Of a stretch of 64,000 bases of DNA, positions 2,117-49,404 are shown piece by piece. The DNA lies in assembly GCA_963701075.1 (NCBI GenBank), contig OY969559.1, forward strand, positions 864,001 through 928,000, read 5' to 3'. This DNA comes from an uncultured Nitrososphaerota archaeon. GTDB lineage: Archaea; Thermoproteota; Nitrososphaeria; Nitrososphaerales; Nitrosopumilaceae. Below the pieces are notes generated by a model. The model ran no database searches and was not told the DNA's origin. It saw only the letters and a list, made by a program, of their open reading frames with translations. Every line of letters starts with the position of its first letter. Within the stretch, counting starts at the first letter, position 1. Position numbers and translations under genes: made by a program.

Positions 2117-2239
2117 TGGTCCCACGCGCAGGATTCGAACTTGCGACTCTCCGGTTTCTGTAAGCCTGATAGGCTGATGACGGTCAGCCGAGAGCCAACC
2201 ACTACAGCCGGATGCTCTACCAGGCTGAGCTAGCGTGGG
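2117..2239 (-). tRNA. tRNA-Tyr(GTA) with 46-nt intron at 37/38 (2156-2201) and encoded CCA
   Basis: Minus strand folds: acceptor CCCACGC/GCGTGGG, D arm GCTC/GAGC, anticodon stem TCCGG/CCGGA with GTA, T loop TTCGAAT; 4-bp central helix CTGT/ACAG with 3-nt bulges at the splice sites (BHB-like). Confidence 0.95.
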
Positions 2240-46511: not shown

Positions 46512-47378
46512 GTGTGGAAACCAAACTCCATCATAGTTTCTGATTCAAGAGATCTTTCCCAAATTGGAAAAAATGCCGTGTCCCTCACTGTAACGTCTCC
46601 ACCATACCATAACGCCATAAACTATGATGAACATCAGACAAGTCAAAAATGGTATAGGGGAACTGTTGGAGTATCAATTGAGAACTGGCTTGAAGAAATG
46701 AAACAAGTGTTCTCACAGGTTTATCAAGTAACCAAACCAGGAGGTTATTGTTGCATTGTTATAGGAAATGAAATCATAGAAGGAAAAATCAAACTACCTT
46801 TACCAGCCCTATTGTCAATTGAACTGACAAAAAATGATGTTGGCTGGAAGTTCTTTGAAGAGATAATTTGGAACAAGGTGACTGGCGGCAAAAAGAGGTT
46901 CCGTGTAACAGTACAACATCCGTATCCGACCTACTATTATCCTAATATCATGCATGAACAGATTATCATACTGCGAAAGGAACCGTTCCACAACGTCAAG
47001 GATAAGAAAAGTAGACTTAGAATCGATAATATCATGAAAAAGGAGATGGCAAACTCGGTATGGCATATTGCCCCTGTACCGCCAAGTTACAGAAAGTTCC
47101 ATCCAGCAGCTTTTCCAGAAGAGATTCCGTATAGGTTGATTCAACTTTACAGTAACGTGGGTGATTTAGTCTTGGACCCATTTACAGGGAGTGGCCAAAC
47201 CCCCAAGATGGCTAGGTTTCTGAAGCGAAGGTACATAGGAGTTGACAAGTCAGAGAAATATGTCAAGATTGCAACAAAGAGAGTCATGGAACCGCCACTA
47301 CTTCGCGGCTTGCAGTTAGTACCTAACTGGAAATTCCCAGAACAGCTTATTCTTGATAGCTCTAATCTGAGATCGTAA
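46512..47378 (+). CDS. Orphan amino-DNA methyltransferase (beta class, SPPY; N4-C or N6-A)
   Basis: VTSPPY precedes HPAAFP and VLDPFTGSGQT; no adjacent nuclease. Confidence 0.9.
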   Translation: MWKPNSIIVSDSRDLSQIGKNAVSLTVTSPPYHNAINYDEHQTSQKWYRGTVGVSIENWLEEMKQVFSQVYQVTKPGGYCCIVIGNEIIEGKIKLPLPALLSIELTKNDVGWKFFEEIIWNKVTGGKKRFRVTVQHPYPTYYYPNIMHEQIIILRKEPFHNVKDKKSRLRIDNIMKKEMANSVWHIAPVPPSYRKFHPAAFPEEIPYRLIQLYSNVGDLVLDPFTGSGQTPKMARFLKRRYIGVDKSEKYVKIATKRVMEPPLLRGLQLVPNWKFPEQLILDSSNLRS

Positions 47379-47409
47379 AGGTTATCTATCAAGGATCGTC
47401 AATCATGCC

Positions 47410-47613
47410 ATGGTAACTACAAACAGCAAGTCGTATTTTCGAGAGGTAGAAAAAAGCCATAGAAACTACACTTCTGCACTAAAGAGGGCCGGATCAAGAC
47501 AATCCGTAATGAATCTTTATTGGAAACACAAGCGTCAACATGAGGCCCTCCTGAAAAAACATCTCAGAGAAGAGATGGCTGAAATAGTTCAAATAAAAAA
47601 GAAATTCAAATAA
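47410..47613 (+). CDS. Small basic helical hypothetical protein
   Basis: 67-aa ORF. Confidence 0.6.
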   Translation: MVTTNSKSYFREVEKSHRNYTSALKRAGSRQSVMNLYWKHKRQHEALLKKHLREEMAEIVQIKKKFK

Positions 47614-47646: not shown

Positions 47647-47817
47647 TTAACTGTTACTGGAAGAATTGTACCACATCTTTACTACACTGATGTCAGATCC
47701 GCTTTCATTTGGTTTAGAAATTTTTAGTTTGTTCTCCTTGTGTTGCTGCATGTTCACGTGACTCTCCACTTCCTTTTCATCTATTTCTTGTGAACATATG
47801 TTACAGCGAAGATTCAA
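47647..47817 (-). CDS. C2H2 (U1/matrin-like) zinc-finger microprotein
   Basis: CNICSQEIDEKEVESHVNMQQH; TTG start inferred. Confidence 0.6.
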   Translation of the reverse strand: MNLRCNICSQEIDEKEVESHVNMQQHKENKLKISKPNESGSDISVVKMWYNSSSNS

Positions 47818-48133
47818 TGTATACTGGGAAGAAAATTCACTATAATAATGTGATGAACATTTGGAATTTCTATGAAAATTCTCGTATGTGTCCATGATTG
47901 ATTCCAAAGATTGGAATTTGATGACCTGTTGAAAGAGTATCAAAACAAAGTTTGTAAATAATGATCAAATGATGATCCAAAATTGAATTTATTGCATCGA
48001 AATTAAATTTCAAAATAATGACATGTATTGAAAAAACGGCGATGATCGCAGCAAATTGTAACGATGTGATTTTCTAGAAATTTTAGAGCGCTAATGTTAT
48101 ATCCATGCTGTTTTATTGATATTGATAATTGAT

Positions 48134-48199
48134 TGTCAAGGGGGCATGAAACTGTTTCTCACGCGAAACGGGGAGTAAAGCGTGAAGCCCCGCTTGACA
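48134..48199 (+). ncRNA. Putative structured RNA with enclosed pseudoknot
   Basis: TGTCAAG/CTTGACA and GGGGC/GCCCC closing stems; hairpin CTGTTTC/GAAACGG whose loop TCACGC is complementary to GCGTGA; GC-rich island in an AT-rich gap. Confidence 0.55.
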
Positions 48200-48348
48200 T
48201 TTCGGCTTTATCGGTCTAACATATTTAGATTTGTTTATAATTGACATGCTGTCATGCGTAAACTAGGTATTTTTTGTTTTTTTCAAGGCAGGCACATCTG
48301 TAATCTTATGAAAAATAATACCTTGATAAAATATTTCAAACTAATATT

Positions 48349-49404
48349 TTATTTCTCAATGATGTATTCATCATCTACTTCCATGCCAAAATGTCTCCCA
48401 GTGGCTGGTTTGGCATATGCAAGTACAACATCTCCTCTTTTGAGATGTGTTACGGATACTAGATGACCATTTGGACGGACAAATCGAATCGTCTCTGCAT
48501 TCTGGGCAATTATGCCTCCTACCTCATCATCAATCTGAGCTTTTATCATTAACATGGGCCTACTTTCTATTTTTGAGCGGCCAACAGTAGCTCTTCTAGC
48601 CCTGCCATGCGAATCAGTTACTAGTACTTCAGACCCTGTTTCAAGCTCTGAGAGATACTTGGTGGTTCCATCTGGTGCTAATGTATAGCAATGGACAGCT
48701 CCGGCATTGACCCTAAATGGCCGAGGAGATGTAAAAGAAGAGCCTACAGACTCGTTATGAACTAAAAACAAAAAATTTGACCTGCTTCCTATCAGCATTC
48801 CCTCTCCACGACCAAGCATAGAAGCTGTATCAACACAAACGCGCTCGCCATTTCCGACCTCTTTTATTTCAAGAATTTTTGCTGGCTTGAGGTCAAAGTT
48901 TTTTGTTCCCAGGTATACCAGTGTCTCCTTTACTTCATTTAGAGAACTTGTAGAGAATATGACCCCGTCCACACCTATCTCTAGTATGGAGAACATCTTT
49001 CGTACCTCTTCAGGCGAATTGGCAATAGCAAATATCTTTGTGTGGATTTTGTGAAGTTTTGCGATAATGTTCTCAAGAGGAATTATCTTCCAGTCTTTTA
49101 CTTCTACTATCACAAAGTCAAGCCCTCTCTTTGCAAACTGTAGTATCTTTTCAATGTCTGCATTTGATAACACCTTGAACTTCATTCCTACTTTTCTTCC
49201 CTTGATTTTGGTCACCTTATCCACTATGATATAATCTGCATTCTGTGATGCATAAATCGTTGTAAGTTTTGTCTTCAATCCCTTGAGGGCTGAAGGGTCT
49301 ACATTGACAATTTTGATGCCTTCTTTTTCTATCTCGGTTAAAAATTTGACAAGCTGGCCCCTGGATACCTTGGGGGCTATGATGAATTCTCTATTTTTTG
49401 TCAA
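48349..49404 (-). CDS. 3-dehydroquinate synthase type II (archaeal AroB')
   Basis: DWKIIPLENIIA, GERVCVDT, RPFRVNAGAVH, QNAETIR, GRHFGM. Confidence 0.95.
   Translation of the reverse strand: MTKNREFIIAPKVSRGQLVKFLTEIEKEGIKIVNVDPSALKGLKTKLTTIYASQNADYIIVDKVTKIKGRKVGMKFKVLSNADIEKILQFAKRGLDFVIVEVKDWKIIPLENIIAKLHKIHTKIFAIANSPEEVRKMFSILEIGVDGVIFSTSSLNEVKETLVYLGTKNFDLKPAKILEIKEVGNGERVCVDTASMLGRGEGMLIGSRSNFLFLVHNESVGSSFTSPRPFRVNAGAVHCYTLAPDGTTKYLSELETGSEVLVTDSHGRARRATVGRSKIESRPMLMIKAQIDDEVGGIIAQNAETIRFVRPNGHLVSVTHLKRGDVVLAYAKPATGRHFGMEVDDEYIIEK

Follow-up and report, generated by a model that had tools for sequence, protein, structure and literature searches.

Evidence for a conserved small hairpin RNA with an unpaired C-rich box in ammonia-oxidising archaea of the family Nitrosopumilaceae

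The stretch of DNA analysed here (the window, 64,000 nucleotides of contig OY969559.1) carries at positions 48134–48199 a compact element that we regard, with high confidence, as a member of a real conserved RNA family. With the same high confidence, the RNA gene is placed on the minus strand. The analysis defines a small RNA of ammonia-oxidising archaea for which covariation backs the structure, the strand is assigned, a promoter is likely and several genera share a syntenic home locus. Searches of Rfam and of the literature outside subscription journals brought up no small RNA already described from these archaea, and nothing on this RNA was found in passages of PMC5069720. An earlier sequence-only reading had proposed an undescribed structured small RNA at this position. 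This proposal holds, given the lack of any Rfam match and the presence of homologues with compensatory changes in the outer stem P1 and the inner hairpin H2. The features discussed below are the following (positions are those of the window).

48134–48199, minus strand: small RNA core (P1, H2 and two unpaired conserved boxes), read from 48199 to 48134, as judged from the fold, 16 orthologues and strand counts
48187–48199, minus strand: 5' strand of P1 (in RNA UGUCAAG, bulged C, GGGGC), pairing with 48134–48145
48134–48145, minus strand: 3' strand of P1, from segment complementarity and type A pairing counts
48180–48185, minus strand: 5' strand of H2 in the RNA (plus letters GCGTGA), with compensatory changes
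48159–48164, minus strand: 3' strand of H2 in the RNA (plus letters TCACGC), the 'P2 loop' of the sequence-only reading, with a double change in copy L002
48170–48175, minus strand: C-rich box, GGGGAG on plus and CUCCCC in the RNA, unpaired in the H2 loop and kept in nearly every copy examined
48148–48153, minus strand: second box, GAAACT on plus and AGUUUC in the RNA, in the 3' internal loop of the RNA
48221–48235, minus strand: TATA-like box with upstream purine-rich stretch (CTAAATAT...), proposed promoter, 21–23 nt from P1 and conserved in all subtypes
48097–48102, plus strand: TTATAT box, conserved in Nitrosotalea copies at 30–32 nt from P1
48349–49404, minus strand: 3-dehydroquinate synthase II gene (Pfam PF01959, E 1.1e-103), upstream neighbour on the same strand
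47647–47943, minus strand: 98-aa ORF with a Cys/His pattern and no Pfam match, downstream neighbour on the same strand

All four pairs of complementary segments reported by the sequence-only reading were confirmed within 48134–48199. On the plus strand, TGTCAAG (48134–48140) faces CTTGACA (48193–48199) and GGGGC (48141–48145) faces GCCCC (48187–48191), with G48192 bulged, the two together making up P1. CTGTTTC (48152–48158) and GAAACGG (48165–48171) can form a further helix, P2, containing one T.G, and the TCACGC of its loop is complementary to GCGTGA; the purine-rich linkers are also present as described. The minimum-energy fold of an 86-nt piece consists of P1 and the TCACGC/GCGTGA helix, without use of P2. 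Its energy is -30.5 kcal/mol on the plus strand (z -3.27, 0/200 shuffles equally good) and -28.2 kcal/mol on the minus strand (z -4.20, 1/200 shuffles equally good). It is mainly conservation and compensatory changes in relatives, rather than these z-scores, that lift the element above chance.

The Rfam comparison suggested by the sequence-only reading returned no Rfam 15 family on the element, on either strand, at E up to 10: at gathering score, the whole window gave two tRNAs only, and in the interval 47900–48400, both strands, the five weak matches found at E up to 10 all lay outside 48134–48199. Six related loci, searched at E up to 1, yielded a single weak and unrelated match. C/D-box snoRNA-like matches at 47962–48047 on the plus strand, beginning at AUGAUGA, are weak (E 5–8; 17–20 bits compared with gathering scores of 50–60) and probably due to chance; they fall within the same extra intergenic DNA as the element (see below). 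One tRNA match (2120–2239, minus strand) spans 120 nt, and thus probably contains an intron, and ARAGORN reported a tRNA of undetermined identity at G000:C1:1801561.

BLAST among 201 genomes of the family retrieved two homologues only. In copy L002, which is 96% identical to the element, two of the four differences convert the inner helix into TCATGC/GCATGA, that is, a double change in H2. A covariance model built from three sequences, searched against the 61 genomes of the genus, located in 16 of them an orthologue (type A) that adjoins the 3-dehydroquinate synthase II gene. Wherever the contig allows reading, the gene order is constant: DNA methylase, 67-aa ORF, small Cys/His ORF, element, dehydroquinate synthase II and DeoC-type aldolase. 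The first two of these, an N6/N4 DNA methylase (PF01555) and a basic 67-aa ORF without Pfam match, occupy 46512–47613 in the window and keep synteny with the element across the genus. The window's genome holds two copies of the element, the other being an 80-nt paralogue (type B) at C1:1369703-1369784, flanked by a 278-aa gene of unassigned family and by a PALP+ACT threonine-dehydratase-like gene, upstream of which it lies. A paralogue at the type B locus was also found in other Nitrosopumilaceae genera. Additional copies adjoin T2SSE and HerA-type ATPase genes or sit elsewhere. The type C copy L070 (G131:C18), for example, lies between a T2SSE-type and a HerA-type (DUF87) ATPase gene, in surroundings that are perhaps a pilus or transfer locus.

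A strict two-box pattern matched 51 sites in 35 of 401 genomes of the family, with one to four copies per genome and all of them in two genera; the reversed pattern, run as a control, gave one match. When a related pattern was applied to 185,579 species genomes, 47 loci were recovered, 31 of which also carry the matching 3' stem strand and bear the titles Nitrosotalea, Thaumarchaeota or Nitrosopumilaceae, the remaining 16 being unrelated bacteria without the stem. Among metagenome contigs, 20 of 41 sites were family-like, plus one truncated at a contig end, and neither of the two matches in viral contigs was. The strict pattern misses divergent copies in Nitrosotalea genomes and in other genera, which are recovered by synteny. 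Indeed, five Nitrosotalea genomes scored as empty by the pattern carry at the type B locus a divergent copy that keeps P1 and the GGGGAG box and has lost the GGAACT box. A related element occurs at the same dehydratase locus in the genera g20, g4 and g13 and, in weaker form, in g17, and was not seen there in the one g18 genome examined. It is present in 18 of 30 g13 genomes, and 17 of these copies were analysed. The form in other genera was located by synteny alone, and these figures apply to the sampled Nitrosopumilaceae genera.

The family's fixed home locus, in several Nitrosopumilaceae genera, is the one where the RNA gene diverges from the threonine-dehydratase-like gene. In five related genomes without type A, the small ORF lies about 50–75 nt from the synthase gene, compared with about 400 nt here, indicating that type A sits in extra DNA of roughly 350 nt. 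Taken together with types C and D, this implies that the RNA gene was duplicated within Nitrosotalea, and the window copy is an extra paralogue specific to this Nitrosotalea-like genus. The contexts of the copies differ, and include dehydroquinate synthase, the PALP/ACT enzyme, T2SSE and HerA ATPases, and TFIIB with tRNA endonuclease.

Collection of homologues and a covariation check, both proposed by the sequence-only reading, revealed compensatory changes in P1 and in the TCACGC/GCGTGA helix. Copies found by pattern or model have in common an outer stem P1 of 11–12 bp (GUCAAGGGGnC and its partner) and an inner hairpin H2, whose sequence varies among copies while its pairing is maintained. 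From a minus-strand alignment of 19 published type B sequences, RNAalifold predicted P1 and H2 unaided, with two-sided changes in 7 of 18 pairs, and pair counting on our own type B structure likewise gave two-sided changes in 7 of 20 pairs, of which H2 contributes 6 of its 9; these alignments, like the others used here, are MAFFT or anchor-based and uncurated, and the related sequences in them are not independent. Neither the paired fraction nor the covariation score observed for type B was reached in any of 500 shuffles, and when the partners were slid against each other, pairing fell from 96.8% to 31–44%. Across the set of paralogues, 7 of the 11 P1 pairs never vary. In a listing obtained by dynamic programming, H2 is perfectly paired in 15 of 16 type A rows, and the exception, L045, has a G.U only in the stem extension. 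The figure of 69.8% for H2 in the MAFFT type A alignment is an artefact caused by the misplacement of some rows. Since H2 varies and yet stays paired, the pairing between the loop and GCGTGA noticed by the sequence-only reading is real, and constitutes the main inner stem.

The strand was assigned partly from the kinds of mismatch found in the helices. RNA helices tolerate G.U, and the series U-A, U.G, C-G is the usual path of helix evolution. When 54 distinct sequences (11 of them from genomes marked unpublished) were read on the plus strand, P1 comprised 571 Watson-Crick, 44 A.C and 6 G.U pairs, and H2 347 Watson-Crick, 26 A.C, 6 G.U and 13 other combinations. Of 82 wobble-type helix positions, 70 are thus A.C on the plus strand, against 12 G.U. 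Since A.C read on plus becomes G.U on the other strand, the excess of A.C on plus indicates an RNA read on the minus strand. This family-wide count, together with the promoter and terminator geometry of other genera described below, runs counter to the earlier argument that a G-U pair in P2 favours the plus strand. One type A P1 pair, read on the minus strand, shows the expected series within itself (UG in 10 rows, UA in 3, CG in 1). Pairing in the 19 type B sequences amounts to 96.8% on minus, where our own count from the per-pair table gives 26 G.U cells, and to 91.0% on plus, with 4, and for type A P1 (16 distinct rows) the corresponding values are 95.2% on minus and 87.6% on plus.

Folding energies point in the same direction. 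Consensus energy was lower on the minus strand in all six comparisons, and so was the minimum free energy of single sequences in 14 of 16 cases among type A copies, in 15 of 25 among other copies and in 5 of 5 among the divergent ones; the window copy is one of the two type A copies whose plus fold is the more stable. On the minus strand the divergent copies form a near-continuous hairpin (e.g., -43.6 and -37.3 kcal/mol, versus -32.2 and -25.8 kcal/mol on plus). The 2x2 internal loop within H2 is rich in U/U on the minus strand and in A/A on the plus strand. In g13, P1 read on the strand opposite the dehydratase gene, which corresponds to the minus strand of the window, contains 218 Watson-Crick pairs, 34 G.U and no A.C over 17 copies, and the energy is lower on that strand in 16 of the 17. 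It is these data from g13 and the other genera (pair counts, energies, promoter and terminator geometry) that, in our judgement, settle the strand as minus.

On the minus strand, the TATA-like box itself lies at 48221–48228 and is conserved also in g4, g13, g17 and g20. In g13, a CTAAATA-type box ends 21–26 nt before P1 in 17 of 17 copies, at 24 nt in most, and the tRNA genes of the window's genome, in our reading, have a similar box 22–27 nt before the mature 5' end. We propose the box and purine-rich stretch at 48221–48235 as the putative promoter of the RNA. Scans for repeats and of the sigma-70 type yielded no useful result. A run of eight T in g17, and one of five T in g20, comes directly after P1 on the strand opposite the dehydratase gene, and in g13 T-runs lie in U-rich sequence within about 25 nt after P1. 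The minus strand of the window copy, like that of the other Nitrosotalea copies, lacks a T-run directly after P1.

The sequence-only reading had also placed a TTATAT box about 35 nt upstream of a plus-strand RNA. The box is present, at a distance of 31 nt before 48134, and its conservation among Nitrosotalea copies is one of the points in favour of a plus-strand RNA that would adopt P1, P2 and a loop-to-linker pseudoknot and act as an aptamer, ribozyme or switch. This plus-strand RNA would also agree with the slightly greater stability of the window copy on plus (-30.5 versus -28.2 kcal/mol) and with the ability of most type A copies to form P2 on plus (91.7% of cells). However, 2 of the 6 P2 pairs are invariant, and two-sided changes affect no more than single cells of an alignment with some misplaced rows, so that convincing covariation is missing. 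P2 is broken in L044 and cannot be drawn in L045, L046 and L184, and types B and C, the divergent copies and the other genera have no counterpart of it. Its invariant T.G becomes a C.A mismatch in every copy on the minus strand. Moreover, the plus-strand box has no fixed place in other genera and is not kept in g13 or g17, and copy L105 has an intact core and a destroyed box. A pseudoknot in which every one of the six loop bases pairs and no spacer remains would, by our estimate, be under steric strain, and helices read on plus would hold the 70 A.C against 12 G.U given above. No feature observed suggests a ribozyme, an aptamer or a two-state switch, and we consider such a plus-strand RNA very improbable. 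As two of its pairs are invariant, its T.G turns into C.A on minus and P2 is absent outside the main type A clade, the pseudoknot was dropped; of that proposal, the covarying TCACGC/GCGTGA helix stands, and P2 is poorly supported, confined to one subtype and on the wrong strand. Both strands may nonetheless be transcribed, or antisense transcription may occur at the element.

Some properties of the element would suit a function at the level of DNA, as a miniature mobile element, a recombination site or an inverted repeat bound by a protein: one to four dispersed copies are found, type A lies within the roughly 350 nt absent from five related genomes, both flanks are conserved, and GATC repeats are adjacent. 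A duplex, however, predicts no asymmetry between G.T and A.C on its two strands, and the one observed is 70 to 12. The ancestral locus is, in addition, syntenic across genera. The sequence-only reading had considered a MITE or an IS200/IS605 end, and neither terminal inverted repeats nor a convincing target duplication was found (one 11-nt pair may be chance), nor a transposase among the neighbours, and neither viral-contig match is family-like. There is accordingly little to recommend a DNA-level element, which we rate as highly unlikely.

Returning to the minus-strand RNA, its most constant part is the C-rich box. CUCCCC is invariant in all 54 Nitrosotalea-type sequences, for which GGGGAG was also the search anchor, and it is kept in divergent copies found by synteny alone. 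It is exact in g4, in g20 and in 15 of 17 g13 copies, reads UCCCC in the other 2 of 17, and corresponds to GGGAG on the plus strand in g17. Nitrosotalea-type copies leave the box unpaired, as do g4, g13 and g20, and its position has moved from a 5' internal loop in these three genera to the apical H2 loop in the Nitrosotalea types. In the other genera, P1 is followed by a 5' internal loop with (U)CUCCCC(U)U, then by a short hairpin and, after two or three bases, by P1 again. An unpaired CUCCCC on a stable hairpin is therefore the one feature common to the genera examined, though weaker in g17. Apart from the window copy, nearly all copies of types A, B and C have GGAACT as the second box, which is paired in g20. 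The two boxes could pair with each other over 4 bp (AACU with AGUU), which was judged sterically unlikely; both boxes are invariant. The element was also considered as a small protein gene, and this was rejected, as the spacing of the boxes (15–17 and 21–28 nt) changes by amounts other than multiples of three and leaves no shared frame.

As the sequence-only reading had observed, no plus-strand gene follows the element: no plus ORF of at least 60 aa starts downstream, and the next gene (48349–49404) is on the minus strand. Its conclusion that the element is not an ordinary 5' riboswitch is equally upheld, since in addition the gene ahead of the paralogues on minus is a convergent one, whose 3' end they point to. 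On the minus strand itself, the RNA could be conceived as a cis-acting, riboswitch-like 5' leader of the 98-aa ORF (47943 to 47647), which lies on the same strand about 255 nt downstream of the proposed start. Against this, the paralogues have no co-oriented downstream gene and the RNA converges on the upstream gene at the ancestral locus; T-runs directly follow P1 in g17 and g20, as described; and the 98-aa ORF is present without the element in five genomes. A leader function is, in our view, improbable.

Our preferred reading, held at about even confidence, is that of an independently transcribed minus-strand small RNA, a Nitrosotalea-specific paralogue acting in trans through its exposed C-rich box. 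The gene would run on the minus strand from roughly 48200 to 48134 plus a tail, from its own promoter. The stable 11–12 bp outer stem and the covarying inner hairpin would hold CUCCCC unpaired, together with AGUU(U/C)C in this subtype, the hairpin serving as scaffold and stabiliser, and the exposed box would pair with purine-rich, Shine-Dalgarno-like GGGGAG stretches in target mRNAs. That the RNA is a base-pairing regulator at all is a proposition to which we give slightly less than even weight. A bolder version, which we put forward only tentatively, is that CUCCCC mimics the pyrimidine-rich end of 16S rRNA and masks ribosome-binding sites, making the RNA a global translational regulator in many ammonia-oxidising archaea; in Nitrosotalea of acid soils its gene would have been duplicated as many as four times, with copies next to genes for amino-acid biosynthesis. 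In a crude test on this genome, 26 of 268 GGGGAG sites lay 3–12 nt before the start of long ORFs, which is no commoner than for five control hexamers. The 11-mer complementary to the second box has two other sites only, neither of them at an evident gene start, and the search for targets by exact box complements and rRNA similarity gave nothing convincing.

These empty target searches would also suit a role of the same minus-strand hairpin as a protein-binding RNA, either a sponge or part of a ribonucleoprotein, with the C-rich box and the outer stem read by a protein. The seven invariant P1 pairs, next to an H2 free to vary, and a box that stays unpaired although its place in the fold has moved between genera, are also consistent with a bound protein. 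On the other hand, no protein gene is conserved beside the copies, whose contexts differ, and no K-turn-like G.A pairs were seen on the minus strand; we therefore hold protein binding to be a somewhat doubtful alternative, and base pairing through the box remains the preferred reading. If the RNA is a regulator acting via its C-rich box, it would offer an entry point to post-transcriptional control in organisms central to nitrification in soil and ocean; if it has a protein partner, it would point to a new ribonucleoprotein.

Some trans-acting bacterial sRNAs, for instance in staphylococci, show a C-rich box on a hairpin that pairs with Shine-Dalgarno-like sequences. The RNA described here resembles these C-rich-loop sRNAs in its promoter-like box, its compact and stable hairpin, its unpaired and invariant pyrimidine box, its U-rich end in several genera and its paralogous copies. 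Unlike them it is archaeal, the likeness lies in these features, and in some genera the box lies in an internal loop. Archaeal H/ACA guide sRNAs are comparable in being single hairpins about 65 nt long that comprise an internal loop and an upper stem, encoded by independent small genes; the internal loop of the element, however, is one-sided (0–1 nt versus 12–13 nt), neither a K-turn nor a K-loop is present, minus shows no tandem G.A, and Rfam gives no match. Also at variance with H/ACA sRNAs, an ACA box right behind the stem is missing in the paralogues: the window copy ends in ...GACA on both strands, but the paralogues continue with UAAAA-like sequence on minus and UU... on plus. In contrast to C/D box sRNAs, the element contains no C or D boxes. 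Small pseudoknotted riboswitch aptamers and ribozymes in Rfam 15 share its size, GC-rich helices and conserved junction letters, but the element matches none of them at E up to 10, has no regulated gene downstream, and its pseudoknot helix is unconserved.

Two further motifs were observed in the flanks. Most Nitrosotalea copies have two or three GATC motifs, separated by a few bases each, in the stretch from the minus-strand TATA-like box to P1; these may form the operator of a dimeric regulator, and they are degenerate in the copy of the window (48200–48220). Between the RNA gene and the dehydratase gene, g4, g13 and g17 have in common a motif of the form GCATAAAAATTGAC (L217–L220), which may be the dehydratase promoter or a regulator site.
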